Assembly (NCBI GenBank): GCA_035221665.1
Contig: CM069146.1
Span: 58,342,001-58,406,000, forward strand
Source: Okamejei kenojei
Taxonomy: Eukaryota
Direction of reading: 5' to 3'
Length of the DNA: 64,000 nt
Under the pieces are notes generated by a model. It was not told where the DNA came from. It was given only the letters and a program-made list of their open reading frames with translations, and did not search any database. Made by a program: the position numbers and the translations under genes. Each line of letters starts with the position of its first letter. The stretch's first letter is position 1. Shown here piece by piece: positions 27,428 to 54,410 of this stretch.

Positions 27428-27525
27428 AAACTGGAGTTTGTTGATGTTGCTACTGGATCTTTAGGACAAGGTCTCGGGGCTGCGGCGGGAATGGCTTACA
27501 CTGGGAAGCATTTTGATAAAGCCAG
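27428..27525 (+). CDS. TKT: Transketolase exon 4
   Basis: [33 protein letters not shown], 98 nt. Confidence 0.97.
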
Positions 27526-31049: not shown

Positions 31050-31777
31050 AGATTATCTGTCTTCTTAAAATGTATCAATTCAGGATAGGTACCCATGTTT
31101 AAAAAACCTCTCAAGTGTGAGGCAGCATTTCTGATCATAAATCCGTTTTTTATACAGGTGTTTACATGCAGACCTTTCTCTTATCTAAATGCCACCATTG
31201 ATTCTGTACAAGCATTCTCAAAATGTGTATTAATAATTAGGATCTGTCATTTGTTTCAGAGTAATTCTTTTAGTTAGAAATATGGTTTAAATGATATTTT
31301 TGTGACACACTTGATTTAAGCATCAAACTTGAATATTTTAATGAAACTTTGAAACTCAATTTTAAATATTGTATTTTGGCTACAGTACTGGACATCTAGG
31401 TGACAATGTGAGAAATTGTATAAAGGGACTGCATCAATCCTGATTGGTCTTGACATTAGGGCTGTGTCAGTCTGTTGTTAACGTGCCCTGGTTAAATGAA
31501 ATCAATAAGATTTGAGGGTAATCCTTCACTGGCAGGGATCCTACGCAACAAACAAAGGAAACTGTTTTAATCTGGGAGAAATCTCACCAATTTCACAATA
31601 TTGATGTAGAGAAAATATTTTGGAGCAAGTTAATCTTGGAGAATTTTTTTAGTGAGGTTTAGAAAGCTGTTTTTGAATTCTGATTATTTACTAACCGGTA
31701 TTTTTCAAATGCTACGGTCAGAGATGAGTAATGTAGGTGCTTTGTACTTTACGGTGTTTCTTGTCCTCTGCTTCCAG

Positions 31778-31969
31778 TTACCGTGTATACTGTTTACTGG
31801 GAGATGGGGAATCATCGGAAGGCTCGGTCTGGGAGGCCATGGCGTTTGCTTCTCACTACAAGCTTGACAACTTGATGGCAGTTTTAGACGTGAACCGCTT
31901 GGGTCAAAGTGAACCTGCGCCTCTGCAACATAAAATTGACATCTATCGCAAACGTTGTGAAGCTTTTGG
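31778..31969 (+). CDS. TKT: Transketolase exon 5 (ThDP-binding GDGE..N motif)
   Basis: [28 protein letters not shown], 192 nt. Confidence 0.98.
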
Positions 31970-33017
31970 GTAAGTTTTTAATTTTGACCTTCAGATGTGG
32001 TACTAAAAGTGTTGGCTGATGGATTAGAGGGCAGACGTAACTCTTTTGTCTTTTAAATATTGATACTTCAATAGGATGGCCAATAAATACATCCCTTAAA
32101 CTCAAGAACAAAACCTTGAGCTTAGCTCTGCATTAGACTGGGGGTGCTGCTGTACGGTTGCTGGAAATGCATAACGTACACCAGGAACACTGCATGGGAG
32201 CTGTTGAGGTTGGCAAAGATGAGGATTCCAGCAACAGATGGATGGACTATTATAGAAGAAGAGCTGGCCATGTTATGGAAAAGGCATCTGCCAGGATACA
32301 AGATGAGAGGCTACACTTGGGAACCAGTATTGGAGTAACACCACAGTATCACAAGTGAAAGCATGAGTTTTGTACAGAGGCTGAAGGTGACACCTTCCTA
32401 TTTGTACTCCTTATAATTAATCTGTTACATGTTAGCCTGAACTTGCAGATTATTGCTAGGAATTGTGATCGTATTCCGGCATTTAATTAATTCCCACTGT
32501 GGAATTGCCTCCTGGTGACATTAATAGGGATCATAGGACAATCGTTGTGGCTGTGTTCAACTGTTCTGCTCTAGGTGACAAATGGAAAGGGATGTTGCTT
32601 TAAATTGGTGGCTTTAATGCTTTTCATTATTTATATATGTTTATGCAATAAGTAATCAAAAAATATTTCATAACAATGTTAAGCATCATTTACTTCAATA
32701 ATTTTAAATGTTTGCGTCAGTCATTTGAAAAATCATGAACTGCTTTTCTAGCTGGCAATGATGGGGGTTGGGTTTCTCTGGGGCATATCAGATCTCTGCA
32801 GAATAGGGAGAGTATGGGGGACCGTGGACTGGTGTCTCACCGGGACCGAGTCACTGAGTTCCAGCTCGGTGCTCGAGTCTGGTAAATAACTTCCTCACAT
32901 CGTCATTTGTACAAATATTGTGAACGCTTTTGAAATTTTGTCTAGGATTAGCTGCTTGAATTGGTATCCGTGTTGATTATTACGGTATACTGGTGAATTG
33001 TGATCCTTTCTGTTCAG

Positions 33018-33145
33018 CTGGCATACTGAAGTTGTGGATGGACACAGTGTTGATGAACTCTGCAAAGCTTTTTGGCAAGCCAGCATGATCAACGGCAAAC
33101 CAACCATGGTTATTGCTAAGACCTTTAAAGGAAAAGGCATCGAAG
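33018..33145 (+). CDS. TKT: Transketolase exon 6
   Basis: [28 protein letters not shown], 128 nt. Confidence 0.96.
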
Positions 33146-34899
33146 GTACCTTAAATACTTAATTTCTGTGATTCTACTTTACCTTTGTCTTGGAAAAGTT
33201 AGTGATCTATATTTGACACAGATCAAAACTATTATGCTACTGGGTAAAGAGCACTAACAGTAACACTCCATGTACTCCTCATGCTGCCTCGGCAAGGCCA
33301 CCAGCTTAATCGAGGACCAATCTCACACTGGTCACTCTGTCATCTCCCCTCTCCTATCAGGCAAAAGGTACAGGTGAAAATGCACACCTTCAGATTCAGG
33401 GACAGTTTCTTCTCAGTTGTTGTTTGGCAACTGAACCAACTAGAGAGTGGTCATGACTTACCAACTACCTCATTGGAGAACTTCTCACTATGTTTATAGG
33501 ACTTTACCTTGCACTAAATGTTAATCCCTTGATCCTGTATCTGTACACTGTGGACGGCTGGATTGTAATCATGTGTTGTCTTTCCGCTACTGGATAGCAC
33601 GCACAAAAAAATCACTGCACTCACCAGAAATCCAGTATTGTGGGCCATACATATAAATCACTAATAATTACAACAGCTTGACCCATTAGAGTAATTAAGG
33701 TGAACAGCATAAATACTTTCAATAGGAAGCTAGATGATGCTTTATGAGAACTGCTGATCAACAGATTCACTTAGATAAAAGAGGAGGGGTGATGAGCATA
33801 AACAGCCTTGATTGGACTTTGCTGGCTTTACCTTGCACCAAATGTTGTTCCCTTATGTATCTGTACACTGCAAATGGCTCGATTGCAATCATGTTCTGTT
33901 TTTCTGCTGACTGGTTAACATGCAACAAAAGGATTTTCACTGTACCTCGGTACATGTAACAATAAACTATCTGAAACTGAGCACAAAGACAAATTGGACC
34001 AAATGAGTTTGCTGCAAATTTGATGTAATGCATATCCACCATTAGCTGATAATTGGTTAAGATGTTTAAGAAGGAACTGCAGATGCTGGAAAATCGAAGG
34101 TAGACATAAATGCTGGAGAAACTCAGTAGGTGAGGCAGCATCTACGGAGCGAAGGAAATGGGCAACGTTTCGGGCCGAAACCCTTCTTTAGGCCTGATGA
34201 TCTTGGAAGCAGCCTGAATTGATGTTGAAATATGAAGGTTATGTGGCATCTATGATCGGGACATCCACGTAACGTCAGATGGTGCGGCAGCAATGGCTGA
34301 TTCGCTGAAAGATGAGGTTGCATACTCTTGCCCCAAGCGCCTGGAATGGAATTTAATAACGGGCACAAAAGCGCCTGGAAATCACAAAGGAAAATAAATA
34401 AGCAACATAAAATTATTGAGGATTCTTTAAATAATTTACTGTTTTTTCTACTAGCTCTTTCAATGAATTTGTCAATCCAGTTGTGGGTAAACAATATATC
34501 CATTTTGTGTAAATTCTAAATTATTCTGAAATGCCCACAAATTGCATGTCTATCATGACAAGATAATTACAACACTATCAATTTTGGTGAAATGTTTCCT
34601 TGTTTCAAGTTGGACCCTGCCTTCAAAGGTAAGAAGCACAAAATAAATAATGTTCAGAGTAAGAAATCTTCAGCCAGTTTAGCTAAGCTAACTAAGCTTT
34701 CCTTACTAGTGACGTTATTGTTAAAATTCACCTGTTCTTGATTGACAGAATCTGTCTATTTAATGTGCAGTCTGTAATCATGATTGCACCGTGTAAATCT
34801 GTGTCCACTGTCGTGTGATTCTGCCTACTGTAGCTTAGCTGAGATTGAACTCTGTGTATGTATGTTGTGTGTCACCTTCAAAGTTTAACATCTTTTCAG

Positions 34900-35093
34900 G
34901 TGTTGAGGATAAAGAAAATTGGCATGGTAAAGCCATTCCAAAGGATGAAGTGGAAGCAGTTATTAATTCAATCAAAGCTTTAATCACGAATGAGAAGAAG
35001 CTTACCCCAGGCCAGCCAACGGAGGATGCCCCACCTGTCTGCCTCCAGAATATTAAACTATCTGCACCACCTGCATACAAACATCTGGAGAAG
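34900..35093 (+). CDS. TKT: Transketolase exon 7
   Basis: VEDKENWHGKAIP..PPAYKHLEK, 194 nt. Confidence 0.96.
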
Positions 35094-36598
35094 GTAAACA
35101 ATCACACTGAACAATATTACTCTCCTTGGGCAGGATCGTTGAGTAACATGATCTGGGAGTTAAAAGTGTTTGAAGTTGCAGTCAGGTTTTCAGGCTCCTT
35201 TCTGAATGCAGAAGTGGATGGGAGGGGAAGATGATTCTTGGTGAAGGTGGCAGAAACTGTGAAAGATAGTCTGTTGAACGAGGAGGCTGGTTTGAACTGT
35301 CCACTGAAAAAGAGAAGCGTGTGCTGCAAGCGCTACTACAGTATTCAGGTATATTCAGCATCAGCTCGTGCAGTCCTGTTCAATGTCATTGTTTGTGAAT
35401 ATGACCCTACTTTGCTTAGACCTTACTGGGGTCTTCTTGTTGCTTGAATACAGTGCAGTTAACATGCTATCTTGTTATATCTGATGTTTGATTAATTCTC
35501 CTACTGTTATTGTGTCATACAGCATGGAAAGAGGCTCTTTGACCCAACATGTCCCGTCTACACTAGTTCCAACTGCCTGCTTTTGCCTCATATCCTTCCA
35601 AACCTGTCCTTTCCATGTACCTATCCAAATGTTTTTTAAGCATAGTAATAATACCTCACTCAACTAACCTGTTCTGGCAGCTCGTTCCACATACCTACCA
35701 TGTGTAAAAAAACAAAGTTGTCCTTCAGGTTCCTATTAAATCTTTTCCCCCTCACCTTAAACCTATGCCCTCTGGTTCTTGATTCCCCAAACCTGGGGAA
35801 AAGGCTCATCGATTCACCTTATCGATTCCTCTCATAATCTGATGCACATATTCATAAGTAATCGGAGCAGATGTAGGTCATTCTGCCCATCTGGTCTTCC
35901 ATTCAGTCATGGCTGATCTATCTTTCCATCTCAACCCCCTTCTCCCTATAACCCATGCCACCGTTACATCAATAATCTATCTATCTGACTAAAATATCCA
36001 ATGACTAGGCCTCCACAACCTTCTGCGGCAAAGAATTCCACAGATTCACCACCCTCTGACTAAAGAAATTCCTCCTCATTTCCTTCTTAAAGGAACGTCC
36101 TTCAATTCTGAGGATGTGCCCTCTGTCCTTGACTCTCCCACTGGTGGAAACATCCTCTCCACATCTACTCTATCCAAGCCTTTTAATATTTGGTAAGTTT
36201 CAATGCGGTCCCCCCCCTCATTCTTCGAAACTCCAGCGTGTACAGGCCCAGTGCCGACAAACGCTCATCATATGTTAATCCAATCATCCTCGGATGAAAA
36301 TGTTCTACAAGATGCGCTGGAATGAAGCCTCCTGATAATTGTTGATTGAGCACGAGGGTTAGAAAGACAAGTAACCTCTACAGGACAAACACAACTGCTT
36401 TAATGACCGTAAACTAGCCACCGGCAAGCACAAGTATGGTCTTCAATCTCAGCTTAAATGAACAACAAATATCTTTCAGGAACTGTCTTATTAATTATTA
36501 CAAGAGCAATGAACAATAAATAGATTGATTTATTCATCATAAATTGATCATGTGTTCATTATTTTTATTGAGTCTTTGCTTGGCACTTGTTTTTCCAG

Positions 36599-36763
36599 GT
36601 GGCCACGAGGAAGGCATATGGTACTGCACTGGCAAAGCTGGGCCACGACAACAAAAACGTCATTGCTCTGGATGGTGACACCAAGAACTCCACTTTCTCC
36701 GATATGTTCAAGAAAGCACATCCCAAGCGTTTTATTGAATGTTACATTGCAGAACAGAACATG
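36599..36763 (+). CDS. TKT: Transketolase exon 8
   Basis: [27 protein letters not shown], 165 nt. Confidence 0.98.
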
Positions 36764-36953
36764 GTAACTTGGAGTACTTATTTTGTCATAAGGTCATCAG
36801 GGATAGGAGTGGGATGAGGCCATTCGGCCCATCAAGTTTACTCCGCCATTCAGTCATGGCTGGTCTATCTCTCCTTCCTAACCCGATTCTCCTGCCTTCT
36901 CCCCATAACCTCTGACATACAAATCATGAAAGAAAAGCAGAAATTAGAATACT

Positions 36954-37256
36954 GGGCGGCATGGTGGCGTAACGGTAGAGTTGCTGCCTCACAGCGCCGG
37001 AGACCCATGTTCAATCCCGACTACGGGTGCTGTCTGTACGGAGTTTGTACGTTCTCCCCATGACCACGTGGGTTATCTCTGAGAACTTCGGTTTCCTCCC
37101 ACACTCCAAAGACGTACAGGTTTGTAGGTTAATTGGCTTGGTGTAATTTTTTTTTAATTGTCCCCAGTGTGTGAAGGGTAGTGTAAATGTGCGGGAATCG
37201 CTGGTCGGTGCGGATAAGACTGGCCAAAGGGCCTCTTTCCACGCTGTATCTCTAAA
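36954..37256 (+). mobile_element. tRNA-derived V-SINE (HE1-like), near full length
   Basis: A/B-box-like head (GGTGGCGTAACGGTAG, GTTCAATCCC), core GGTTTCCTCCCACACTCCAAAGACG and a CR1-type tail. Confidence 0.85.
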
Positions 37257-37770
37257 TAGAAACAGAAAATAGGTGCAGGAGGAGGCCATTCGGCCCTTCG
37301 ATGTGATCATGGCTGATCATCCAACTCAGTATCCTGAATCTGCCTTCTCTCCATACCCCCTGATCCCTTTAGCCACAAGGGTCACATCTAACTCCCAAAA
37401 AACAAAACTAAAATAAATAGTGTGTGATGATGAGATTAAGACTGGGGTAGTTTCATCATCGTTATTGCAGAAGCCAAGCCTGCGTTCCTGGACTGACCCG
37501 CTGCTACTTTGTTATTGCAGGAGCATTCACACTGGTAGCAGCATGTAATTATTATGATTGATTGTAATAAGAATGTTCTTATAAGATTAAAAGGCATCCT
37601 TTATGATCTTTGATTAAACTAATTCAGAAAAAACACTTTTTTGGGTTGGGTTCATTTTCTTTCCTGATTTATCGCAATCTGTAGAGGGTAAAGATAATGA
37701 AAATGAAGGACGTTTGTACAGCAGGCATTTGGCTGAGAAGTTAATGTGGTCCCTGTATATTTCTTTACAG

Positions 37771-37927
37771 GTGAGTGTTGCTGTCGGCTGTTGTACACGG
37801 GACCGGACTGTTGCGTTTGCCAGCACTTTCGCAACTTTTTTCTGCCGAGCATTTGATCAGATTCGTATGGCAGCCATTTCTGAGAGTAATGTTAATCTCG
37901 TTGGATCCCACTGTGGTATCTCAATTG
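37771..37927 (+). CDS. TKT: Transketolase exon 9
   Basis: [32 protein letters not shown], 157 nt. Confidence 0.98.
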
Positions 37928-38167
37928 GTGAGTTAAATCTAAATATTTCTAAACTAATTCCTAATTCACGTGGAACATTCCTTTGCCATTCCCTGCGGTC
38001 TTCCTCCAGTCCTGGATATGGGTTTTCAGAAGTCCATCAACGCCTGTGTAAGTGGCCGTACTTTACTTGTGAGTGCACGGAACATCGCCGGATTGTCCTT
38101 GTTTTGGACTCCAAATCTTTCCTCAGAAGTCAGTGGGGTTGTTTCTAATGCTGCTAATTGTTTTCAG

Positions 38168-38298
38168 GTGAGGATGGGCCTTCACAGATGGGCCTGGAGG
38201 ATCTGGCTCTGTTCCGCGCCATTCCAACCTCAACAATCTTCTATCCAAGCGACGCTGTCTCCACTGAACGTGCAGTGGAACTAGCTGCTAACACCAAG
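38168..38298 (+). CDS. TKT: Transketolase exon 10
   Basis: [35 protein letters not shown], 131 nt. Confidence 0.98.
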
Positions 38299-39017
38299 GT
38301 AGAGGCTGCAAACTTTACTTCAAAGCTTTTCAGGCCAAACCATTTTTAAGCCAGTTTGTATGTTTTTACAGCCCCTTCTCCCCACAGCCCTCACTCATTG
38401 TGCACGTACCCATGTCCTGATCTCTGAAAAGGTGATGACAATGCACCACGCACTGTCACTTTGAATTACTACAGAGGTTGCAATTCTGAAAGTGAATTTT
38501 AGCTCCTTTATCTTCACTAACCACTCCACTTTCCACTGTGTTTTCCCATGGAGGAGATGCAACCTCTTCACCTTCACCATCCAGGGACACAATCGGCCCT
38601 TTCAAGTGAAGCAGCAATCACTTACCTTTCTTCCGATCTCTTCTCACACTGAACCACTTCACCTCCACCCTTCTTTCTCCAGATCAAAGGTGTAGCTTTG
38701 GGGACTTGCATGCTCCCAACGTGCGCTATGTGCAACAGTCCAAGTTTCAGTTCTGCTCGGGCTTATCTGGTCAATTGATGACTGCATTGGTGATACCTCC
38801 TGCACACATGCAGTACCTGCAGTTTGTTGCATTTGCTTCACTCTTACCTCCGCATGTTCCATCTCCTGCCTCTTCTGTTGCCTTTCTGAATCACTGTGCC
38901 CCTGTCCCTGGGTGGCTTACTGACACACATTCATTAAATGTCCTTGGACTCCCATAACAGTTTCAACTATCCTTCCTCCACCCTGCCTTCTGAACAAATT
39001 CCCTTCTCCCAGGTTAG

Positions 39018-39133
39018 CACATAGGCAACATGTCTAGTGCTGCTGCCTTTGATGTCACATAGGCAACATGTCTAGTGCTGCTGCCTTTGATGTCACATAG
39101 GCAACATGTCTAGTGCTGCTGCCTTTGATGTCA
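39018..39133. repeat. Perfect tandem repeat, 38 bp x 3
   Basis: CACATAGGCAACATGTCTAGTGCTGCTGCCTTTGATGT three times, no spacers. Confidence 0.95.
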
Positions 39134-40217
39134 AGTTCAATCGTTTCAAGGAACTCTCTTTCTTTGTTTGTGCCAGAACTGCAGAAGTGTATCCATCTGC
39201 TTCAGTAGCTGTGTTTTCCTATCTGTACTAACACAGCTGATCTGCTGACCAGTTGCTGATGCTACAGCAATTACATGCTAATCTATTACATTGCTTCCCA
39301 TGCTAATTTATTAACCAGATGGATTCATCAGCAGCTAATCACTAAGGCAGTATACTCCCCATCCAATCAAAGATAATCCATTTGTCCCATCCATTCCTCC
39401 CCCACCCTCTGTTAACGTAAAACTAACTTTGGTCAGTTCCGAGGAAGAGTCTTCTAAATGAAATGTTAACTTTAATACTTTTTCTGCAGGTGCTGGCTGA
39501 CGGACTGAGTATTCCCAGCATCTTCTGCTTTTGTGACCTTAATGTTTTCATCAATGGCAAGGCTTTGTGTAAAACCATCCCACTGCTCACTGGCTAAATA
39601 TTGTTGACTCAGTTTCTCTCTCCGCAGATGCTGCCCAGATGTTGAGAACTTCTCACATTTTCTGTTTTTATTTCAAATTTCCAAGATCAACACTTAATTT
39701 TCCACAACCACTGTGTTTGAGAGGGAATAGCAACTTAGTTCTTGTTCTGATCTCAGTAATCCACTGTGGCTAAATATGATGTGTTGCCATTTCACAAATT
39801 TGCAGCAAAATTAACTGAAAGGAATTTGCAGTTACAGTATGAATTTATTTGTAAAGTTACAATTTGGTTTATCTTGGACATGCGCAGTTGTGACAGGTTT
39901 ATTTTGGACCAAAACACTACTTTGTTTACAAGTAAGGCGCTTGATCTTGTTTATTGGAAAGGAAGAGCGGAGCCTAGGTGCAAGTTGTCCCAGAATGTTT
40001 CATGGGCAAGTAATTACCTTGAAGTGTCATTATGATTTTGCATCATCTATGCTGAAGTGTCTGCTAAGATTGTCCTCGGTCTCAGGGTGGAGCTGAACAT
40101 AACCTTGCATCAGATGCAACAGTTCACTTGTTTTCCTCTCTTGTTGTATGGTACTGGGTTTATGAAAAGTTTAATAAAGTTTCACTTCTGAACTGAAATC
40201 TTGGTTGCACCCCGTAG

Positions 40218-40301
40218 GGTATCTGCTTCATTCGAACCAGTCGACCAGAGACGACAATAATTTACAAAAATACTGAAGTTTTTGAGGTTGGAAAAGCTAA
40301 G
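40218..40301 (+). CDS. TKT: Transketolase exon 11
   Basis: [28 protein letters not shown], 84 nt. Confidence 0.97.
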
Positions 40302-40415
40302 GTAAACAGTCTAGCAAAAATTATTCATGAAAATGCATGTATTAGCTTCTCATTTACCCTAATGTTTAAATGAACACATCACTCCAGCTGTAAGCAAGCA
40401 GACTTTATTAGAAGT

Positions 40416-40536
40416 GTTTAAGAAAGAACTGCAGTTGCTGGAAAAATCGAAGTTAGACAAAAATGCTGGAGAAACTCAGCGGGTGAGGCAGCATCCATGG
40501 AGCGAAGGAATGAATGACGTTTCGGGTCGAGACCCG
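40416..40536 (-). mobile_element. Short Penelope-tail element (hammerhead motif truncated)
   Basis: Matches the PLE tail at 49959-50050; 16-bp TSD AGACTTTATTAGAAGT at 40400-15 and 40537-52. Confidence 0.85.
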
Positions 40537-41233
40537 AGACTTTATTAGAAGTATTATTTTTCAAAAAGATTGTAATTTTTTGGAAGTTTATCTTATTTGA
40601 TTGTCAGCATGAAAATATTTGGCCTTTAGTGATCCATTGTATGTTGCATTTTGTTTCCTGTCTGTCACAGTCTGGTGTTGCACTGTGCAAATCAAGTTTT
40701 CCTTGGTACCATTAATTTGAGGAATTCAAGGGCTTAAGTTAAATGTGTAGGAAAGAATTGCAGATGCTGGTTTAAATCGAAGGTAGACACAAAATGCTGG
40801 AGTAACAGCGAGTCAGGCAGCATCTCTGGAGAGATGGAATGGGTGACGTTTCGGGTCGAGACCATTCTTTAGACTCTGTCCCACTGAGTTACTCCAGCAT
40901 TTTGTGTCTACCTTCGGAATAAGTTAAATGCTGTCCTTGTACTGATGATCATATATCATGTTTTCATAATGTACGCTCATCTGCTCTAATTTAAATAGTT
41001 AAGAATAGGTCCAAAGCTCCAATCCAAAGCAAATTGGGCCTGCACTTATAGTGCAGAATCATCCACAGTACCAGGTGAACACGGAAATCAGTCATTAGTG
41101 GTGGGGAAAGAAAGATGGCAGGCAAGTGAAGCTAGTGATTAATGGTTCTATTGTCCTTTATTTTCACGCGTACCAAGGTACCGTGACATTTGATTTACCA
41201 TACACTCATACAAAAAAAGCAACAAGATACATA

Positions 41234-42694
41234 CAGTGGCTTGCAAAAGTATTCATACCCCTTGAACTTTTCCGCATTTTGTCATGTTACAACCACAAAC
41301 GTAAATGTATTTTATTGGGATTTTATGTGATAGACCAACACAAAGTGGTGCATAATTGTGAAGTGGAAGGAAAATGATACATAGTTTCCAGATTTTATTA
41401 CAAATTAAAAAACTGAAAAGTGTGGCGTGCAAAAGTATTCAGCCCCCCCGAGTCAATACTTTGTAGAACCACCTTTCGCTGCAATTACAGCTGCAAGTCT
41501 TTTGGGGTATATCTCTACCAGCTTTGCACATCGAGAGACTGAAATTTTTGCCCATTCTTCTTTGCAAAATAGCTCAAGCTCAGTCAGATTGGATGGAGAG
41601 CGTTCACAGACTTTTCAAGTCTTGCCAGAGATTCTCAATTGGATTTAGGTCTGGACTTTGACTGGGCGATTCTAACACATGAATATGCTTTGATCTAAAC
41701 CATTCCATTGTAGCTCTGGCTGTATGTTTAGGGTCGTTGTCCTGCTGGAAGGTGAACCTCCGCCCCAGTCTCAAGTCTTTTGCAGACTTTAACAGGTTTT
41801 CTTCCATGATTGCCCTGTATTTGGCTCCATCCATCTTCCCATCAACTCTGACCAGCTTCCTTGGCCCTGCTGAAGAATAGCATCCCCACAGCATGATGCT
41901 GCCACCACCATGTTTCACAGTGGGGATGGTGTGTTCAGGGTGATGTGCAGTGTTAGTTTTCCGCCACACATAGCGTTTTGAATTTAGGCCAAAAACTTCA
42001 ATTTTGGTCTTGCTGTGTCCCCCACATGGCTTGTGGCAAACTGCAAACGGGACTTCTTTAGGCTTTGTTTCAACAATGGCTTTCTTCTTGCCACTCTTCC
42101 ATAAAGGCCCGATTTGTGGAGTGCACGACTAAGAGTTGTCCTGTGGACAGATTCTCCCACCTGAGCTGTGGATCTCCTCCAACTCTTTCCATTTTCGGAT
42201 GATGGATTGAGCAGTGCTCTGTGAGATGTTCAAAGCTTGGAATATTATTTTATAACCTAACCCTGCTTTAAACTTCTCCACAACTTTATCCCTGACCTGT
42301 CTGGTGTGTTCCTTGGGCTTCATGATGCTGTTTGTTCACTAATGTTCTCTAACGAACATCTGAGGCCTTCACAGAACAGCTGTATTTATACTGAGATTAG
42401 ATTACACAGAAGTGGACTCTATTTACTAATTAGGTGACTTCTGATTGGCAATTGGATTTTATTTAGGGGTATCAGAGTAAAGGGGGCTGAATACTTTTGA
42501 ACGCCACACTTTTCAGTTTTTTATTTGTAAAAAGATTTGAAAACCATGTATCATTTTCCTTCCACTTCACAATTATGCACCACTTTGTGTTGGTCTATCA
42601 CATAAAATCCCAATAAAATACATTTACGTTTGTGGTTGTAATGTGACAACATGTGGAAAAGTTCAAGGGGTATGAATACTTTTGCAAGCTACTG
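41234..42694 (-). mobile_element. Tc1 DNA transposon with long TIRs, internally deleted transposase
   Basis: TA flanks; TIRs of about 210 bp starting CAGTGGCTTGCAAAAGTATTCATACCCC; transposase pieces MKPKEHTRQVRDKVV and VKHGGGSIMLWG..FQQDNDPKH..SPDLNPIENLW. Confidence 0.96.
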
Positions 42695-43270
42695 TAACTG
42701 CATAAAGATTAAACATAGACTTAAGGCGTGTGAGAATCCCCAGGGCACACCGCATAAGCGGAGACAATAGACAATAGGTGCAGGAGTAGGCCCTTCGAGC
42801 CAGCACCGCCGTTCAATGTGATCATGGCTGATAATCCCCACGGGTGTCGGGGGGGTTATGGGGAGAAGGCAGGAGAATGGGGTAGAGGGGGAAAGATAGA
42901 TCAGCCATGATTGAAGGGCAGAGTGTTGTTGGGCCGAATGGCCTAATTCTGTTCCTACAATGTATGAATTTATGAAATATAATAGGTTAAGCACAATTAC
43001 TCCACAGAGCTTCAGAAACTTTGAAAAGTCTCAAGAAAGAAATTATCTCAGCTAATTAATGAAAACATTCAGAAATACTTTGGTCACTGCAGGATTCAAG
43101 GTGTAGGTTCTGAAAATAGTTGCACAGTTTAACCAAGAGGCTAATCTGATCTCCCTTGTTTACACTGGAGACTGCAGATAGTGGTTTTAATAGAGTATTA
43201 TTCTCTAAGATAAAATGAGTAATTAAAAGCCAGTTGTGACAGTTGACAAAGAAGGTTGTTAATTGCGCAG

Positions 43271-43367
43271 GTTCTGCGGAAGAACAATAAGGATGTGCTG
43301 ACGGTTGTTGCTGCGGGCGTGACAATGCGCGAGGCATTGGCTGCAGCTGCGGAGCTGGCCGAAGAGG
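43271..43367 (+). CDS. TKT: Transketolase exon 12
   Basis: VLRKNNKDVLTVVAAGVTMREALAAAAELAEE, AG/GT, 97 nt. Confidence 0.93.
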
Positions 43368-44567
43368 GTAATTATAAACTGGTGCACATGTACCGATCAA
43401 GCTTCTCTCCTGCTGCACATGCACCTCTCTTCTGCAGCAGATTCTTTCTTCAATATACCTTAATAATTGCATAGTCCTGACACATTTTATAAAACGCAAT
43501 ACATCTTACATTGTGATTTAATCACTCTCAAAGTTACACTCTCCTTGGGCTAATCAATGAACATGATTGGAATTAAAAGGATAATTAATAAATAGGTGTG
43601 TTGGGAATATTATAGAACTGCAAAACCTCTAAGGTGCCCCGTTCCCTTTCGTATGAGGTTCAAGTTTCACCCAGCATCTGCAGAAAATCTACAGACTTGC
43701 TCAAAACAAGTTTTGTGACCCTATCTGAAGTTAGAGCCACTGAAGCAAGGACTGGATTTCTGAGTGAATGTGCACATCAGCAAGTTTCTACATCACAGCA
43801 TTGACTAGCAATGTAAACGTTTGAATGTGGTTACACTGGAAATTATCCCATTTATTTTTTCCATTTGTTAATTACATCATAGATGTGGACCCATGTATGA
43901 ACAGAAACTATTCTCTTTTGGCTCTCTCACTGAAACAGGAAACATGTATTGTCAATCAATAAAATGTAGATGCTGGTAGTGTGAAACAAAACAATGGTTT
44001 GAGACACTGGTCATTCCAGGCAGCAGTTGTGGAGCAGAGACACAGGACATTAAGGGCTGATGATCTTCATCACAACGTGTGTTATTTGGTTGAAATGAAA
44101 GGCATAATTTGTGAACAGATATAAATATAAATGTAAATATATGGTAGTTGTGTCACTGTGAAAGTTTGTACTTTATGCAAGCAGCTGCTACCATTGACAA
44201 GAAATGGCCAAAGTCAGGATGCTTCTAGTGTTCAGTGACTAATGATATGATATCATGCTGATCCAAGACTGTTCAGGATATGGCAAAGGAGGTGAGGTGG
44301 AGGAAGGCCAGTACTGAGGAACAGAGGGTGGTTTGGAAGGGAGAGGATGGTAATGCAAGGAAAGATACAAAGTTGGCAGGGTAACATTTACTGACAACGA
44401 TATCAAAGAATCGGAGGACCAGGGGAACTGGGATAGGCTGAGTCACCGAGTCACATTCTTCGCACTTGCATTGAAATAATTGTTTTTCATCTTTATTTGA
44501 AACTATTCATATATTTGCATTATGTGTAATATAATTAATTTGCCTTAAAATGCATCTGATGTTCCAG

Positions 44568-44690
44568 GTATATACATTCGAGTGATTGATCCATTTACTA
44601 TCAAGCCGATTGATGATCAAACAATCACTTATTGTACTAAATGCACCAAACTGAAGAAGATTATCACTGTGGAAGACCACTATTATGAAG
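44568..44690 (+). CDS. TKT: Transketolase exon 13
   Basis: IYIRVIDPFTIKPID..ITVEDHYYEG, 123 nt. Confidence 0.96.
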
Positions 44691-45506
44691 GTAAGATTTT
44701 AAAATCCATTTGAACAAAGGTATGTGTGGATAAAACTCTGGCTTTAGCTATTTGTATAATTTATGGAATGGGTCAAATCATGTTCATAGTTAGCTTGAGA
44801 GTGGTGAGTTGAGAGTTAGACTTTATTCCCTCTAATCATTGATATAGTTGCAACCTAATGTCACAGAACAGAATCCAGCTTCTTGTTAGCAGAAGTTGCA
44901 GCTGAGGTTGGTGGAGTTGCTTCTGCCCAAGTCTATCATGAACGTTACATCTTACAAATGCGATGGCCTTCTGTATGAGGAGAACTGAGCACTCCTAGCT
45001 GGTGACATTCTTTAAATGTATTACTTCATCCCAATTTCAAATATCTGTTCTTAATAAACAAAAATTATTATTTTATTTCCAATTTCAACTATGTTTCTAG
45101 TCTGACAATTTTTTTTTAGTTTAGAGATACAGGGAACAGGACCTTCGGCCCACCGCACCGACCAGCGACCACCCTGTACACTAGCACTATCCTACACACA
45201 CTAGGGACAAGTTACAATTTTACCAAGCCAATTAACCTATAAACCTGGTCAACTTTGAAGTGTGGGAGCTCCTGGAGAAAACCCACCCAGGTCACAGGGA
45301 GAATGTACAAACTCAGTACAGACAGCATCACTATGCTGCAGTGGAAGGATTTACAATGAGCCCAATTTCTGGTTGTTCGCGTGCCCCAATCCTGTGTTTT
45401 TACTATCATTGTACAATTGGTCTTTGTTTGAATATGTTTGATTAAATTTAACAATACATCCATTTTTCGGATGGTCAGCATCACAGGGTGTTCTCTTTGG
45501 TTGCAG

Positions 45507-45685
45507 GAGGTCTTGGTGAAGCAGTGACAGCTGCAGTTGCTCTGGATCCTGTGATAAAGGTGCACCGCATGGCAGTGTCTGGCGTGGCATTCAGCGCTAC
45601 GTCAGCCGAGCTCATGGAGAAGTTTGAGATTGATGCAAAAGCAATAGTGAAAACTGTGAAAGAGCTCAGTGAGGACCAGTACTAG
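45507..45685 (+). CDS. TKT: Transketolase exon 14 (stop)
   Basis: GLGEAVTAAV..IDAKAIVKTVKELSEDQY-stop. The 14 exons sum to 1887 nt, an intact 628-aa frame. Confidence 0.95.
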
Positions 45686-46706
45686 TCCCCAGGTCGTGGG
45701 CTAGCAGTTGATCGCTTTCTGTCATTTGTTTGAAATAGCAAGCTGCTTCATGTGTTTCGTGGATTTGCGTAATTAGTAAACTTGAAAATGAACTAAGGAA
45801 GTTAACTTGGGAAATATTGAAGTAGTCTCTTTAGTGACTAGTGTTGGCTGTGACGGTTTATGGCCATTGGGAGAATGTTCTGTTCTGGTGCTATTAATGT
45901 TCACAAACATATCAATGGTTCTGTTTTGGTGCTGCACTAATATTCACAAAACACATCAACTAAAGGTGTGTGGTTGGGTCTGGTCCGTGATTTAGTTTAA
46001 AGCAGCACTTGTGGAAAGCCATCCCATGCCTATTTGTCCTGGAGGTCCCTGTGGCCAGAATCTGTTCAGCTCTCAGTAACAATCACACTCACCCCAAGCT
46101 GCTGTTTCAGACTAAACCAACCAAGCACAACCTCAGCATACTGTTTCAATGTGTACGGTTTCAGCTGTCCATTCTCACTGTCACAGACTTATTACTCCCC
46201 CCTCTATAAACGTGCCCACCTAGCTTCCCCTCAGATGTGGTTTTCTACACCATCTTTGGGAATTTCAGACCCTTTCATCCCGTGCTTTCCTGCACCTGCC
46301 TCACCTTATCTCATCCAACTTATTACTAATAAAAATACCTTTATTTTTTGAAAATGGTGCAAGATAAATAACATTGCAACTGAAATGTTCCTGCCTCCGA
46401 CCCTTTCTCCCCAATGACAATAATTTTTATAATAACATTTTTCTACAACACAAGGTTTATTAGGAACGCAACTGTTGCGTTAGAGCAGAACCACCTTGTA
46501 CGTCTATCTCCTCTCGCCACAATGTTCAAATAGCGACCACACAAAGTTGCTGGCTAATTTTCAGAGTCCGGTAAACTACTTTAGTAGTAAATAAGAACCA
46601 AAGTAACATTGAAAATGAGGCTGCTGTTAGTGACATGCCAGTCAGGTTCACATAATGCTGCGTACGTTTTTTGCTGGGATCGTTTTTTTAAAATGTTGGA
46701 AAGATT

Positions 46707-46973
46707 TTAATTAAAAACAAAGTTATTTTGAATGTTACTTAAATAATTTTTTGAATATACAATAATTTTCAATGTAAGTGCATAGTTTAGAAATGCAGGT
46801 TTTCTTTGGGGAATACTATGGTACAGCAAGATAATAAAATTTGCACAAACATAAAATGTTCTGGAGTTTTCTTGTGGCTGTCCATCAATGAATTTAGCTT
46901 CCACTTGTCGCTGTAAATGGAGCCGTTCTATCAGCTGAAGGATACTCTGGGCAGCAGGGTCGATGGAAGCTGG
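46707..46973 (-). CDS. Uncharacterized gene, candidate last exon
   Basis: Acceptor GATTGTATTGCAG, phase 0. PASIDPAAQSILQLIERLHLQRQVEAKF... The 3' half looks UTR-like, so the true end is uncertain. Confidence 0.55.
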   Translation of the reverse strand, partial: PASIDPAAQSILQLIERLHLQRQVEAKFIDGQPQENSRTFYVCANFIILLYHSIPQRKPAFLNYALTLKIIVYSKNYLSNIQNNFVFN

Positions 46974-47283
46974 CTGCAATACAATCACAACATGATTTAA
47001 AAAATATGCACAATTAGAATAAAGTCACAATGAAGTTCCACCATTGTCATCAGTTAATTTTATTTTTTGCCACAACTCTTGGCCAAAATACTTATTAGAC
47101 ATGTTTAAGATACTTTCATACAGTAGTATAGTGGGCTGAACATTTTCCTCAACTTCAAAGGAGTAAGATGGGCACAAAAAGCTGCAGTAACTCAGCGGGT
47201 CAGACACCAACTGGAGAAATGGAATAGATGGCGTTTTGGGTTGACGCCCTCCTTAAGCTGTGAAGTTAGTGTTAGTTTTGTAC

Positions 47284-47477
47284 CTTGACGGTGTAGTCTC
47301 TAATCTGGGCAAGTGTCTCAACCTTCCTCTTGGGTGAACTATCTCCCAACAGAAAAGGATCCTGTGAAGAACTGGACCTGTTACAATCTATTCTTGTTCT
47401 TTCTTCCCAAATCAGCCCCATTCCATGAGTCAGGTGATTACACTGGGATTTGTGCTGCTCAGATTGATTGCTGTTCC
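47284..47477 (-). CDS. Uncharacterized gene, internal exon
   Basis: Acceptor CCCATCCTAG, donor GTACAA, 194 nt, phase 1 to 0, open. Confidence 0.6.
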
Positions 47478-47738
47478 CTAGGATGGGCATCAGTGGGGAA
47501 ATAAATGGGTTCTCTCATCTGACAAATGTTCAACAGATTTTAACGCGGGGGCATCACACATGAACTCCACGGTGACCCTTTATTGTACAATTCCACTTAT
47601 TTGCCTGATTTTTGGAGACTTTAAGAATAAGAATCTTGGCCACATTTTACATCCCAGATCACTAATGGACGAGATGCTGGAAGATGTGGTTTAAATTAAT
47701 CCAGTTGCACACGGATCAATTTCCTGCAGACGTCTCAC

Positions 47739-47818
47739 AGGGCACAAAACACCACGTCTCCTGAGCAGCGCCTCCTATATACTGTGACCTGGTCTCCCAC
47801 AGCAGACATGTCAAGGCA
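47739..47818 (-). CDS. Uncharacterized gene, internal exon
   Basis: Acceptor CTTTTACAG, donor GTGAGA, 80 nt, phase 2 to 1; ALTCLLWETRSQYIGGAAQETWCFVP. Confidence 0.6.
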
Positions 47819-47999
47819 CTGTAAAAGTACCACCAACTCTGTCTCTACAGAATCCATCACAGTTTAACAGTTTAGTTTATTGTCACGTGTAACGGGGTAC
47901 AGTGAAAAGCTTTTGTTGTGTGCTATCCAGTCAGCAGAAAGGCAACTCGTGAACCGAGGTCAGTGTTCTCTCCCAGCCCAACACTGATGCCCAACTTAC

Positions 48000-48129
48000 G
48001 CTGAATCAGTTCTGGGGAAAGCCACATCTTTGGCATTCCTGATACCATTCTCCCAAACACTTATAAATGCTTCTAAAAGAGTTAGGGATGTAATGTCCTC
48101 GCTGAATGTTGGGAATCCCTGGTCTCCGT
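48000..48129 (-). CDS. Uncharacterized gene, internal exon
   Basis: Acceptor CTTCACTTTAACCAG, donor GTAAGT, 130 nt, phase 1 to 2; GFPTFSEDITSLTLLEAFISVWENG. Confidence 0.62.
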
Positions 48130-48424
48130 CTGGTTAAAGTGAAGTTGGAATGCTATTGAAAGCCTTGATTTTGCCAAGAAGACTTGCAGAAGTGCACCAC
48201 TCCACAAATAACAAGGAAAAGCTGGAGGGCAGATCTGTGCAACAGTCCATGAGTGCACAAGAAATTATCAATACGAGGAACTGCACATACTGGTTTACAT
48301 AAAAAGACACAAAGTGCTGGGATCATTCAACAGATCAGGCAGCATCTCGAGAACACAGATAGTGACATGGATAGTGACCCTTCTACAGACATTTCAAGAA
48401 ACGGTCAGGAAACATAAGAAACTG

Positions 48425-48835
48425 GCTTGTCCAACACACGTCTCCTGAAACAGATCCTGTACTCTCAACTGAAGGAGGTCGGCGAGCCCCCGGTGGGCCA
48501 AAGAAACGCTTCAAGGACAACAGTGAAGAAATTCCACATCACCTCAAGCAACTGGGAGCACATTGCACTGGACAGGCGCTCCTGGAGGAATTCCGTGCAG
48601 GAAGAAGCTGCACGTTATGAAACAGAACTATGCCGTGTCGCAGAGACAAAGCGACAACACCGTAAGGAGAGAGCGAAGGGGCTCGACTACCCACCACCGC
48701 CAGTCTCCACTGTCCACGTTGCACCAAGGTGTGTGGATCGCGGATCGGCCTCTACAGACATCTGCAGACCCACAAGTAGACGACCCTATGGAGAGGAGAG
48801 GACAGTCATACTCGTTTCGAGTGACCGCCAATGAT
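48425..48835 (+). mobile_element. RTE-clade LINE 3' fragment
   Basis: RLLKQILYSQLKE..WEHIALDRRSWR plus a frameshifted C2H2-like end (CPRCTKVCGSRIGLYRHLQTH). Confidence 0.8.
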
Positions 48836-49151
48836 CATGTTGCTTTTTTGTGCAACTGTGGCAAATAAAATTTCACTGTACCTCGGCACACGTGACAATA
48901 AAGAACCATTGAACCATTATTTATTCAAATGCAAAGTGGTCGGTGTGTGGGAATATGATGTTGCAATCACATTGGTCTGGTTGAGGAAAGGACAGGCGTT
49001 CCAGGATGGAATCTTCAGGCATGATGTGAAAGAGGGAATGGCATTGAAATATGGATTAAGGAATCCATTATGGTGGTATAAGAGGATATCCTTGAGGTTT
49101 TTCAAACAAAACTATGTGTGTAGAATTTAAAAAGAAAATAGGGTTGATCAC

Positions 49152-49210
49152 TTCTAATCCTATGTTTGGCAGATGAGGCTTGTGGGGTATAACTTGTATA
49201 AATTTTGCAG
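49152..49210 (-). CDS. Uncharacterized gene, small candidate exon
   Basis: Acceptor TTTGATTTCAG, donor GTGATC, 59 nt; phase 2 to 1 bridges its neighbours. Confidence 0.4.
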
Positions 49211-49390
49211 CTGAAATCAAATATTATTTTATTAAACTCTAAACTGCTGCAATTTTTTCATTGGTGAACTATTACTGTTTGTAAAATCTTAATTCAACGT
49301 TTCAAACCAATTCCAACTATCGTGGCACTCAAAACCAGGATAATATAGAGTTAAATGAATGATAAAAACAAATCAATAATCAAACTATTA

Positions 49391-50177
49391 TGGGCTGCAT
49401 GGTGGCACAGCCACTGCCTTACAGCACCAGAGACCCAGGTTTGACCCTGACAACGGGTTCTCCCTGTGACAGTATGGGTTTTCCCCAGGAGCACCAGTTT
49501 CCTCCCACATCCCAAAGACGTGCAAATTTCCCGGTGCGGCAGAGGTTCATCTGCACCTCCTCCAACCTCATCTATTGCATCCGCTGCTCTAGGTGGCAGC
49601 TGCTCTACATCGGTGAGACCAACACAGGCTTGGCGATCGCTTCGCCCAACACCTCCGCTCGGTTCGCAATAACCAACCTGATCTCCTGGCGGCTCAGTAC
49701 TTCAACTCCCCCTCCCATTCCGAATTCACCTTTTCTGTCCTGGGCCTCCTCCATGGCCAGAGTGAGTCCCACCGCAAATTGGAGGAGCAGCACCTCATAT
49801 TTCGCTTGGGTAGTTTACACCCCAGTGGTATGAACATTGACCTCCAATTTCAGGTAGTCCGTGCTTTCTCCCTCCTTCCCCTCCCCTTCCCAGCTCTCCC
49901 ACAGCCCACTGTATCTGCCTCTTCCTTTCTTCTCCCCAACCCCCACCCCCACATCAGTCTGAAGAAGGGTCTCGATCCGAAACTTCACCTATTCCTTCTC
50001 TCCATATATGCTGCCTCACCCGCTGAGTTTCTTCAGCATTTTTGTCCACCTGCAAATTTCCCTTCGTGTGTTGGGAGTACATAAGTGGGATAACATAAAA
50101 CTAGTGAACGGATGATCAATAGTCGGCGTGGACTCGGTGGGTCGAAGGGCATATTTCCACACTATCTCTAAACTAAA
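49391..50177 (+). mobile_element. HE1-like SINE split by a Penelope insertion
   Basis: SINE head and core at 49391-49532; the tail resumes at 50051. Confidence 0.75.
49533..50050 (+). mobile_element. Penelope-like element 3' fragment (GIY-YIG endonuclease plus tail)
   Basis: NLIYCIRCSR..LLYIGET..LEEQHLIFRLGSLHPSGMN; 12-bp TSD TGCAAATTTCCC at 49521-32 and 50051-62. Confidence 0.92.
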
Positions 50178-50687
50178 TGGAGCTATTGTAAAACAAATTA
50201 CATTTATGGTCCCCATTTCCTGGGCAATTCTGTTTTCAAACACAGGGTGGCGGTAGTGAGTTAGCAAAGTTAAATTAACTCCTCGTGTAATAAGGGTACA
50301 CAAAAGGCTGGAGAAACTCAGCGGGTGCAGCAGCATCTAAGGAGCGAAGGAGATAGGCGACGTTTCGGGTCGAGATCCTTCTTGTAATAAAATGGAACTG
50401 CAGATTTATACCAAAGATATACACAAAATGCTGGAGTAACTCAGTGGGCCAGGCTGCATCCCTGGAGAACATGATACTTGGAAACTGTTCATTACTAATG
50501 TCAACTATGTTTATAGAGTACAGGGCAAAAGCAGGCGTTCTGAGTTAGTTCCCTGAACTGCTGTTGTCATCAAAAATCACAGTGCTATCTTTAAGAAGGA
50601 ACTGCAGATGCTGGAAAATCGAAGATAGACAAAAATGCTGGAGAAACTCAGCGGGTGAGGCAGCATCTATGGAGCGAAGGAAATAGG

Positions 50688-50716
50688 GAACGTTTCGGGT
50701 CAAGACCCTTCTTCAG
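50688..50716 (-). ncRNA. Minimal hammerhead-ribozyme-like motif in a Penelope-tail element
   Basis: CTGAAGA-A-GGGTC-TT-GACCC-GAAA-CG-TTC: CUGANGA box, stem II, GAAA box and NUH. Activity untested. Confidence 0.55.
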
Positions 50717-50796
50717 CCTCGCCCGCTGAGTTTCTCCAGCATTTTTGTCTACCATAGAGCTATCTTTGGTTGTCACAGCATGGGGTTCAGTCTCAC

Positions 50797-50997
50797 GAGG
50801 ATGAATTCCCCCTCCCCTCCGCCTGTCTCAACCTTCTGACGGGCTGAAGCAAGTTTAGAATTCGGTATGAACCTGCAGTTACTCCGTCACTAAGTGCAGT
50901 CAAAGCAACAACTGGTGCTTCACAATTAGTTATTGCCTTTATCTGTTGCAAGCTTCCATCCGTCCTCTTTGTAGCCTGTACGTTGGCCATGTAACAT
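50797..50997 (-). CDS. Uncharacterized gene, candidate internal exon
   Basis: Donor GTGAGA, weak acceptor, 201 nt, phase 2 to 2; CYMANVQATKRTDG..EAPVVALTALSDG. Confidence 0.45.
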
Positions 50998-51635
50998 CTA
51001 CCTCTCTTCATTTAAACATTGGACATATCCACAGCTGACCAACGATTGCAGGCTCTGAGTACAAGAACAAAATTGATTAGTGCGGCTGTCAGAAGTTACG
51101 GGGAGAAGGCAGGAGAATGGGCTTGAGAGGGAGAGATAGACCAGCTATGATTGAACGGCAGAGTGGACTTTATGGGCCAAATGGCCTAATTCTGCTTCTT
51201 TCACATGAATTTATGACCAGAGTCAGATTAATTTTACACTACTAACACTGCACAAAGGATTTATTTTTTAATCTTTTGTTCTTAATATGTCAAAAGGGGT
51301 GAAAAAGAGTGCCGATGCAAAATGTCACAAAATGTTTTTTGGTGAACCAGTTCCTTGTTTCTCTATTCTTTATATATCCTTCAATCTTATTATTTTGTTT
51401 TGTATAAAATTAAGTATCAACTTATTAAGCATTAATGTGAGAAAAATTGACTTTATGCTGCTTCCCACAATCCCAAAGCACTTTACGACCAATTAACAAC
51501 TGTTGAAGGATGATCACTGCTGTAATTGGGGACCTTATTAGTGACAATATTGTGCTACTAGGCAGACAGCCTCTGTGCTAAAAGTGGATAAATCCTGGGA
51601 TAAGTGCCCTGTCCTCAGTCTCTGTGATGCCAGTG

Positions 51636-51860
51636 CTTAACTAATTTTTTGGAATTTTTTGAGGACGTAACAAGTAGAATGGATAAGGGGGAGCCAGTGG
51701 ATGTGGTGTATCTGGACTTTCAAAAAGCCTTTGACAAGGTTCCACACAAGAGATTAGTGTGCAAAATTAGAGCACATGGTATTGGGGGTAGGGTATTGAC
51801 ATGGATAGAGAACTGGTTGGCAGACAGGAAACAAAGTGGAGGAATTAGCGGATCTTTTTC
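51636..51860 (+). mobile_element. CR1 RT fragment
   Basis: EFFEDVT..VYLDFQKAFDKVPH..WIENWL. Confidence 0.85.
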
Positions 51861-52555
51861 ATCCTTAGCATCTGAGAGGTTGGTTCAAAATCTATTAACA
51901 GCAGGGGAGAAACTGTTCCTGAGTGGTGATGTGTATTTTCTGCCCATATAACCAGAGTGTGAGTGGTCCTTGATTATGTTGGTTGCTATCATGAGAAGTG
52001 TAGATGGAGTTGATAGTGGTCCGTGTGATAGACTGTACTACATTCACAAGTCTCTTCAATTTCTTCTGGTCTTGGGCAGGGCAGTTGCCAAGCCAGACCA
52101 AGTTGGGATACATCAGATAGGAGGTTTACTGTGGTGCATCTGTATAGAATTGTCAGCAATGTGCTGGATTTCCTTGTTCTTCTGACGGAGTAGAGGCATT
52201 GGTGTGCATCTGGCCGCCGCTGTTTGTAGCCTTAACCCTTTGCCATCTTCATCCCTCCTCTTTCCTGGTGTCTTTCTGTTGTTCCTTCTGCGCTTCTCTT
52301 TGGGGGAAGAGGCACGTCAGGATGTCCAGGGAGGGAGGCCATTAAGGTTTATAAAGAGTGCAGGAAGGAACCGCAAATGCTGGTTTAAATTGAAGCTAGA
52401 TACAAAATGCTGGACTGAAGGAGGGTATCGACCCGAAACGTCACCTATTCCTTCTCTCCAGAGATGCTGCCTGTCCCGCTGAGTTGCTCCAGCATTTTGA
52501 GTCAATTAAGGTTAATAAAGAACTCTGGGCTAATATCTGTAACCAACATTGTCAC

Positions 52556-52662
52556 CTTGGTGCAGTCGACCCTCGGGAAGTGGATCCTCTGGGCAAACCT
52601 AGCTCAGCTGCTGCTCTCTGTACAAGGAGTAGAATTACCCTTTCCTTAGATGGAGATGCTCC
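52556..52662 (-). CDS. Uncharacterized gene, candidate internal exon
   Basis: Donor GTGACA, 107 nt, phase 0 to 2; GASPSKERVILLLVQRAAAELGLPRGS. Confidence 0.5.
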
Positions 52663-53502
52663 CTGTCATCTCACGCAGCAGATCTGAGGGCTAACATTTA
52701 CGGGCAGCTGGAGCGTAGAATTGTCTGCAAGCTAAGTTCAATGTGACCTTTACATTGAGATTCAGAGCAGTCCTGCTGCAGCTATGTATGGGGGCTCTTC
52801 CTATAGAGGGCAACAAATCCTTATTGGCAATGATTTAGAAGCTGTTACTTTACAAACATATTGGTTCCAGGCAGGGGAAGGTGTGAGCGCACTCAGCGGA
52901 TGAGATCCACCTGACCTATTCTGCTGGACAGATGTTGTTAAGCTGCAAAGAGCGCAGAGAAGATGTACGGGAATGTTGCCAGGACTCGAGGGCCTGATCT
53001 ATTGGGAGAGGTTAGGCTGGCTAGGACTTTATTCCATGGAGCAAGAGGATGCGGAGTGATAGAGGTGTATGAAATCATGAGATGGATAGTGTTAATGTAG
53101 TCTAAGACACACAGTAAGGACATCAATAACTAGGGGACATAGGTTTAAAGCAGGAGGTGAAAGATTTAATATGAACCTGAGGAGCAACCATTACACACAG
53201 AGGTCGGTAGGTATATGGAATGAGCTGCCAGAGGAGGTAATTGAGGCAGGTGCTATAAAAGACATTTAGACAGGTACATGTATAAGAGAGGTTTAGGGGG
53301 ATATGGGCCAAATATGGCCACGTGGGACTAGCGTAGATGAGGCGATTTGTTCAGCATGGACGTTGGGCCAAAGGGCCTATTTCTGTTCTGTACGACTCTT
53401 CCCGTCTGTCTATCCCGCACCCTCTGAATGCCTGTGCCTTTGGCCACTGTCCTCCTGCCCTGGGATGTGTCAGGCAGTAAAGACCATGGATCGGGCTCCT
53501 AC

Positions 53503-53662
53503 CTTCAGTTTACAATAGCAATCCATCACTTCAGCAGATGTTGACCAGTACAGACATGGAATGTCCCTCTGTTCATACCAGTGTTCTGATGCATAGTCCA
53601 GACTGGCTGATAAACAACTAGTTTCACCAGCGTTGTCAATTAGTTGTTGTACACATGCACAT
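53503..53662 (-). CDS. Uncharacterized gene, internal exon abutting the gap
   Basis: CAG at the gap edge, donor AAG|GTAGGA, open frame CACVQQLIDN..HWYEQRDIPCLYWSTSAEVMDCYCKLK. Confidence 0.55.
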
Positions 53663-53665
53663 CTG

Positions 53666-53838
53666 NNNNNNNNNNNNNNNNNNNNNNNNNNNNNNNNNNN
53701 NNNNNNNNNNNNNNNNNNNNNNNNNNNNNNNNNNNNNNNNNNNNNNNNNNNNNNNNNNNNNNNNNNNNNNNNNNNNNNNNNNNNNNNNNNNNNNNNNNNN
53801 NNNNNNNNNNNNNNNNNNNNNNNNNNNNNNNNNNNNNN
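53666..53838. other. Assembly gap (N run)
   Basis: Run of N. Confidence 1.
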
Positions 53839-54410
53839 GTGTATGTACATGTGTGTATGTACATATCTGTACTTGTGTGTATGTGTCTACATGTGTGTGT
53901 ATGCATGTATGTACATGTGTGTTTGCACATGTCTATACATGTGCATGTATGCGTGTGTACATGTGTGAGTATGTGTGTATGCGTATATGTACGTGTGTAT
54001 GGTGTGTGTATGAGTGTATGTACATGTGTGTACATACATGTGTGTATGCATGTGTGTACATGTGTGTATGCATGTATGTACATGTGTGTACATATATGTG
54101 GGTGTACATGTGTGTGTGTGTGAGTGTGTACATGTGTGTGTACATGTGTGTGTACATATGTATGTACTTATGTGTACATGTATGTGTATGTGTGCGTGTA
54201 CATGTGTGTATCCATGTATGTACATGTGTGTACATATGTGTGGGTGTACGTGTGTGTGCGCGAGTGTGAACATGTGTGTGTACGTGTGTATGCGTGTGTG
54301 TACATGTGTATGTATGTGTTATGTACTTGTGTGTACCTGTGTGTGTACATGTGTGTACATGCATGTCTACATGTGTGTAAGCGTGTGTGAAAGCGTGTGT
54401 GTACATGTAC
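53839..54410. repeat. Degenerate (TG/TA/CA) alternating purine-pyrimidine microsatellite
   Basis: GTGTACATGTGTGT-type units; continues at about 55899-55955 after the CR1. Confidence 0.95.

Follow-up and report, generated by a model that had tools for sequence, protein, structure and literature searches.

A candidate spliced coding gene, possibly damaged, converges on TKT in Okamejei kenojei

In the region table of a dog study (PMC9897549), CACNA1D, DCP1A, TKT and PRKCD stand together, with nothing between the last two; passages of PMC5423597 gave no gene order. The table agrees with the mammalian order, PRKCD after TKT, on which a first-pass annotation had relied when it proposed an uncharacterised eight-exon, 398-codon gene on the minus strand beyond TKT, in a 64,000-nucleotide stretch of Okamejei kenojei DNA (GCA_035221665.1, contig CM069146.1, positions 58,342,001 to 58,406,000; the whole stretch is called the window here). 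The closest described counterparts of such a candidate form a class, not a family, namely orphan vertebrate genes and unitary pseudogenes. With these it shares a multi-exon layout, weak splice sites, a faint coding bias, no detectable homologue and an in-frame stop in one exon. It differs in that neither a transcript nor an orthologue nor an ancestral intact copy was seen, and either label would be provisional. The candidate fits no family tested and appears to behave like an orphan gene or a unitary pseudogene. On balance we lean towards the view that the segments are mostly real exons, which would form the 3' part of a lineage-restricted, spliced coding gene lying tail-to-tail with TKT and either damaged or loosely constrained (Table 1).

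The window resembles the mammalian block in having DCP1A and TKT side by side and in the same orientation. It differs in that no PRKCD exon was recognised among the open reading frames (ORFs) of 45700-64000, with no Pfam family passing the cut-off on the minus strand, and in that the candidate matches no kinase family. PRKCD, which we take to lie on the same strand as the candidate, was rejected as its identity: kinase and kinase C-terminal domains were absent above the cut-off from 113 minus-strand ORFs, in a search that matched three of three TKT exons used as control.

All eight segments were reproduced with their coordinates, AG/GT ends and phases (2-0-2-2-1-2-1-0-stop), giving 398 codons over 1198 nt. 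Comparison of the window with itself shows 22% of the candidate region to be repeat, and not one segment base falls in it, as the annotation had stated; the repeats look like cartilaginous-fish SINEs, probably of skate or ray type. The convergence with TKT likewise stands.

The evidence for a real gene is concentrated in the core formed by exons 5-8, which packs 172 codons into 1320 bases. With thresholds tuned to the core, this density had no match in 1000 shuffles or in 138 real windows; under six untuned settings the matches numbered 2-17 among 400 shuffles and 1-4 among 138 windows, several of the matching windows falling on a LINE ORF at 54428-55799. Phase offers a second line of evidence. 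When the best site for each open frame was chosen blind to phase, six of seven junctions agreed (12 of 13 in TKT; chance 0.333 per junction), the sole mismatch being exon 3. Allowing one upstream stop gained the exon 2-3 junction and lost the exon 4-5 junction, leaving the count at 6/7. When account is taken of exons 4 and 6 each being open in two frames, a hand calculation puts this agreement at about 0.02, before correction for the choice of segments. Third, the excess of G at codon position 1 over position 2 was 0.081, compared with 0.027±0.033 in stop-free dinucleotide shuffles (7/300 as high). A combined splice and composition score gave 20.7 for the region and at most 15.4 in 13 controls. 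The AT-rich tail of exon 8 that keeps its frame open, the two minus-strand AATAAA beyond it and the lack of strongly hydrophobic stretches in the exons, all described below, also count in favour.

Several results weigh against this reading. Because the segments were chosen by hand, all tests in favour of real exons are inflated. The codon-position bias is far under that of TKT (0.19-0.25) and DCP1A (0.12), and neither the codon score (z=1.4; 25/300 shuffles) nor purine at position 1 (103/300 shuffles) was significant. An amino-acid signal reached in 2/2000 draws was mostly lost in a GC-richer pool (P 0.05-0.25). The segments have a CpG observed/expected ratio of 0.30, lower than in TKT exons (0.59) and in the window as a whole (0.39). 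On the combined score TKT controls reach 27-68, and two of the six exons in the best-scoring chain lie on repeat-derived sequence. At untuned settings we estimate about one window of core quality per 100 kb of strand, so the core density is no more than suggestive.

These points bear on the explanation that the chain is a chance one, assembled by hand from open frames with passable AG/GT sites in intergenic DNA between repeats. Among 17 control stretches, each 7 kb long, 6 yielded loose dynamic-programming chains with at least eight exons and at least 398 codons, and 14 had a best chain that beat the annotated one (27.3); the control stretches overlap, some contain element ORFs, and two lie upstream on the same strand. 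Taken whole, the 398-codon chain by itself does not stand out from chance. The CpG depletion and the weakness of every acceptor relative to TKT point the same way, as do the lack of homologues for exons 1, 3, 5 and 8, the 113 minus-strand ORFs with no family above cut-off, and a maximal-segment scan with no excess over the opposite strand (33 vs 37 segments), although that scan is GC-confounded and was dropped as a test. Chance does not readily account for a core in the top 0-4% of controls, for six phase-blind junction matches out of seven, or for a codon-position bias reached by only 7/300 shuffles, and we regard it as a possible but doubtful explanation.

Splice-site strength was scored in bits with a weight matrix, with the TKT exons as control. 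The candidate donors of exons 1-7 score 4.6, 2.4, 0.1, -1.0, 1.5, 1.0 and 0.4 bits (TKT 1.6-6.6), and the acceptors of exons 2-8 score -3.2, -12.0, -0.8, 1.4, 1.6, 1.4 and 0.3 bits (TKT 1.7-6.1). All seven scorable acceptors and five of seven donors thus fall under the weakest TKT site of their kind (1.7 and 1.6 bits), a further count against real exons. The first-pass annotation had cautioned that two acceptors were weak and that part of the chain could be chance; long chains did arise in the controls, and every scorable acceptor is weaker than those of TKT.

On this scoring, exon 3 as annotated is implausible. Its acceptor at 50997 is purine-rich, has no pyrimidine tract and ranks in the 6th percentile of the region's AGs. 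Fifty-seven bases upstream, an acceptor of 2.8 bits (51054) lies in the same frame and supplies the required phase 2, an agreement expected by chance about once in three, and the frame read from it meets a TAA at 51014-51012, 13 codons in. Because the annotated acceptor is purine-rich and the natural one runs into a stop, the exact 398-codon model is unlikely. The unrecognised minus-strand gene itself keeps the better part of the probability, on the strength of exons 5-8 and the donors of exons 1 and 2.

That an intact eight-exon gene of 398 codons is ancient among vertebrates, kept in non-mammals and lost in mammals, appears very improbable. In its favour, the frame is open as written, across canonical sites both with exon 3 and with exon 3 skipped; the dog region table places nothing between TKT and PRKCD (PMC9897549); and the TAA in exon 3 may stem from a base error or from an allele that is private. 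Against it stand the -12.0 bits of the exon 3 acceptor, in a chain whose scorable acceptors are all below those of TKT, and the database matches that such a gene would be expected to yield for exons 1, 3, 5 and 8 and that were not found. Since no homologue was found anywhere, there is no ancestor for a loss in mammals to rest on. A unitary pseudogene would show a disabling change, and the TAA behind the best in-phase acceptor of a skippable exon may be of that kind; no syntenic orthologue was found with weak single-exon queries of 42-66 residues.

Table 1. Features of the candidate locus and its neighbours (positions within the window).
Feature	Position	Strand	Remarks
Candidate exon 1	53503..53662	-	Cys-rich, 53 codons; strong donor at 53503, uncertain 5' edge
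N gap and degenerate CA/TG array	53666..54409		Directly upstream of exon 1; gap of 173 N at 53666-53838
Candidate exon 2	52556..52662	-	Annotated acceptor weak, -3.2 bits
Candidate exon 3	50797..51054	-	Symmetric, phase 2-2; annotated acceptor at 50997
Candidate exon 4	49152..49210	-	Weakest segment: acceptor -0.8, donor -1.0 bits; two frames open
Candidate exon 5	48000..48129	-	42 codons, core cluster
Candidate exon 6	47739..47818	-	26 codons, core cluster; two frames open
Candidate exon 7	47284..47477	-	64 codons; polar Ser/Gln/Asn-rich linker
Candidate terminal exon 8	46707..46973	-	Stop TAA at 46709-46707
Polyadenylation hexamers	46328..46461	both	AATAAA on - at 46461 and 46345, on + at 46328
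Possible upstream exons, good acceptor and donor scores	61444-61342, 57037-56955, 56049-55958	-	Isolated segments, possibly of the candidate or of another transcript
TKT	22774..45685	+	14 exons; convergent neighbour and positive control
DCP1A exons	mRNA_decap_C at 8078-8395		Upstream of TKT; Pfam

The individual segments differ in quality. The donor of exon 1 stands at the 99th percentile. The exon is internal, and its acceptor lies three bases from the N gap, so its 5' edge is uncertain; alternative acceptors occur at 53606 and 53602, and 12 of the first 17 bases of the exon agree with the CA/TG array on the far side of the gap. The gap and array may hide the true acceptor of exon 1 or another exon. 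Exon 2 offers stop-free, in-phase acceptors at 52644 (0.6 bits) and 52617 (3.3 bits), while those at 52683 and 52707 run through one TGA at 52668. Exon 4 is weak in every test, its composition scoring lower than its own shuffles, and exon 7 holds a stronger internal acceptor at 47361 (5.9 bits, phase 0). In exon 8, GC content is 47.5% over the first 40 codons and 23.6% over the last 48, an AT-rich tail whose frame stayed open in only 48/3000 shuffles; the tail is either a poorly constrained end or the result of a lost earlier stop. Beyond exon 8 the polyadenylation hexamers are arranged head-on, the minus-strand one at 46345 facing the plus-strand one at 46328, which is the only plus-strand AATAAA between the TKT stop and 46706; 4 of the window's 65 plus-strand hexamers form such a pair. 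Upstream, at 54500-63965, the best exon chain scored like controls, and a start codon and promoter were not identified.

Searches for relatives were made by single exon, with the short queries noted above, and covered four of the eight exons in large collections. Exon 1, scanned in full with HMMER against 1.84 billion representatives, gave no match at E<=0.001. A word-indexed search, which covered longer proteins only, yielded no homologue among 164 candidates for exon 3, four for exon 5 and three for residues 1-45 of exon 8. That all four searched exons are without a relative counts against the candidate, in collections for which there was no positive control for skate and shark proteomes. 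These blanks speak against a well-conserved gene that is already annotated; they would be compatible with one that evolves fast or lacks annotation. Among the 20 sequencing runs listed there was no RNA run and none with half of the words (shares 0.05-0.24); repeats alone account for 0.19 of the 31-mers and the exons for 0.13, so these shares are uninformative.

The annotation had recognised no protein family in the chain, and single-exon searches bear this out. Pfam matched none of seven exons (E<=1) and neither of two extended exons, and no family rose above the cut-off in 113 of the 119 listed minus-strand ORFs, the one match below it having E 0.017. Against PDB sequences the best of five exons reached E 0.34. 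Predicted from single sequences with AlphaFold, exon 3 gave a pLDDT of 53.7 and exon 8 one of 66.5, all helix; Foldseek found no usable fold (best E 2.6). In the Atlas, exon 3 had no match and exon 1 only unnamed matches at 0.90-0.91 with low recognition; a MULE lead for exon 1 (0.85) was rejected. Among metagenome contigs, none of 592 pattern matches was confirmed. The literature searched, which excluded supplements and genome annotations, yielded no description of a gene at this place.

The stretch PVVALTAL in exon 3 is reminiscent of a CheY-like receiver domain, with which it shares a short hydrophobic strand motif and the Thr-Ala that comes after it. The candidate differs in having neither a Pfam match nor a homologue, and this identity was rejected: there was no match at E<=1, none after reading through the stop with X, and no homologue among the 164 candidates. 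A recognisable transposable element was rejected as well, with no segment base in the self-repeats of the window and no transposase, reverse transcriptase (RT) or kinase family on the segments in Pfam.

A further explanation takes the frames as incidental to a spliced non-coding RNA, to far 3' exons of the gene that follows (by mammalian order, PRKCD) or to an old, decayed mobile element. The weak coding bias, the good-looking splice sites further upstream, the polyadenylation hexamers and the richness of the interval in element fragments are all consistent with it. It does not predict the concordance of phases, however. Rfam matched nothing in 50000-64000, the segments could be assigned to no transposase, RT or kinase family, and no segment recurs in the window; we consider it improbable.

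If the segments are mostly real exons, the gene would be transcribed on the minus strand toward TKT and end head-on with it, and it would be fast-evolving or under relaxed selection, with damage at exon 3, whose good acceptor runs into a premature stop. Inclusion of exon 3 through 51054 would give a truncated product, the stop lying several junctions before the last; a premature stop so placed triggers nonsense-mediated decay, which we infer as the probable fate of such a transcript. Exon 3 is symmetric in both forms, and the exon 2 to exon 4 join preserves the frame, so that skipping (phase 2 to phase 2) would leave it open through exons 4-8.

No exon has a membrane-length hydrophobic stretch (maximal 19-residue hydropathy 1.09), and exon 1 encodes six Cys. 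We would expect a soluble, intracellular product with no catalytic signature, made up of a Cys-rich segment, short alpha/beta segments, a polar linker and a C-terminal amphipathic helix; the helix at the start of exon 8 is predicted with low confidence. Should the gene be real, a role as a binding or adaptor protein can be suggested tentatively. Expression in a restricted tissue such as gonad, which would explain the missing annotation, is a guess.

Elsewhere in the window, one TKT exon matched solved transketolases at 113 bits in the PDB sequence comparison. The last two TKT exons (44568-45685, plus strand) include a last exon in which Pfam finds no transketolase family at E<=0.01. Both seem more diverged from human transketolase than the middle exons. 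A TKT intron carries a perfect 38-base tandem repeat of 3.1 copies (39018-39133), a recent duplication or an assembly artefact.

Mobile-element remnants are frequent. A LINE fragment at 54428-55807 (plus strand) retains a 339-codon open reverse-transcriptase frame (Pfam RVT_1, E 2e-35), and two broken Tc1/mariner-type transposase copies, at 1790-2849 (plus) and 41604-42335 (minus), match HTH and DDE_3 families in Pfam. Three further regions are assigned tentatively: 49617-49960 (plus) resembles the GIY-YIG end of a Penelope-like element, with no Pfam match; 11067-13400, between DCP1A and TKT, presumably holds DIRS-type retrotransposon-like fragments with a gag-like piece and an RNase H-like motif (one ORF, no Pfam match); and 17700-19200 (minus) looks, from its translations, like a frameshifted L1/Tx1-like ORF2 remnant.

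Should the chain be a product of chance, the lesson would be how readily 7 kb of vertebrate intergenic DNA yields hand-built exon chains of 400 codons with consistent phases. If the gene is decaying, it would be a case of gene loss in progress, with an intact form to be expected in sharks or chimaeras. A functional gene, kept in cartilaginous fishes and lost toward mammals, with exon 3 as a skipped or decay-triggering cassette and a head-on polyadenylation site common with TKT, seems unlikely; were it to exist and function, annotation would have missed a vertebrate gene in a well-conserved block, and the gene would found a new protein family.

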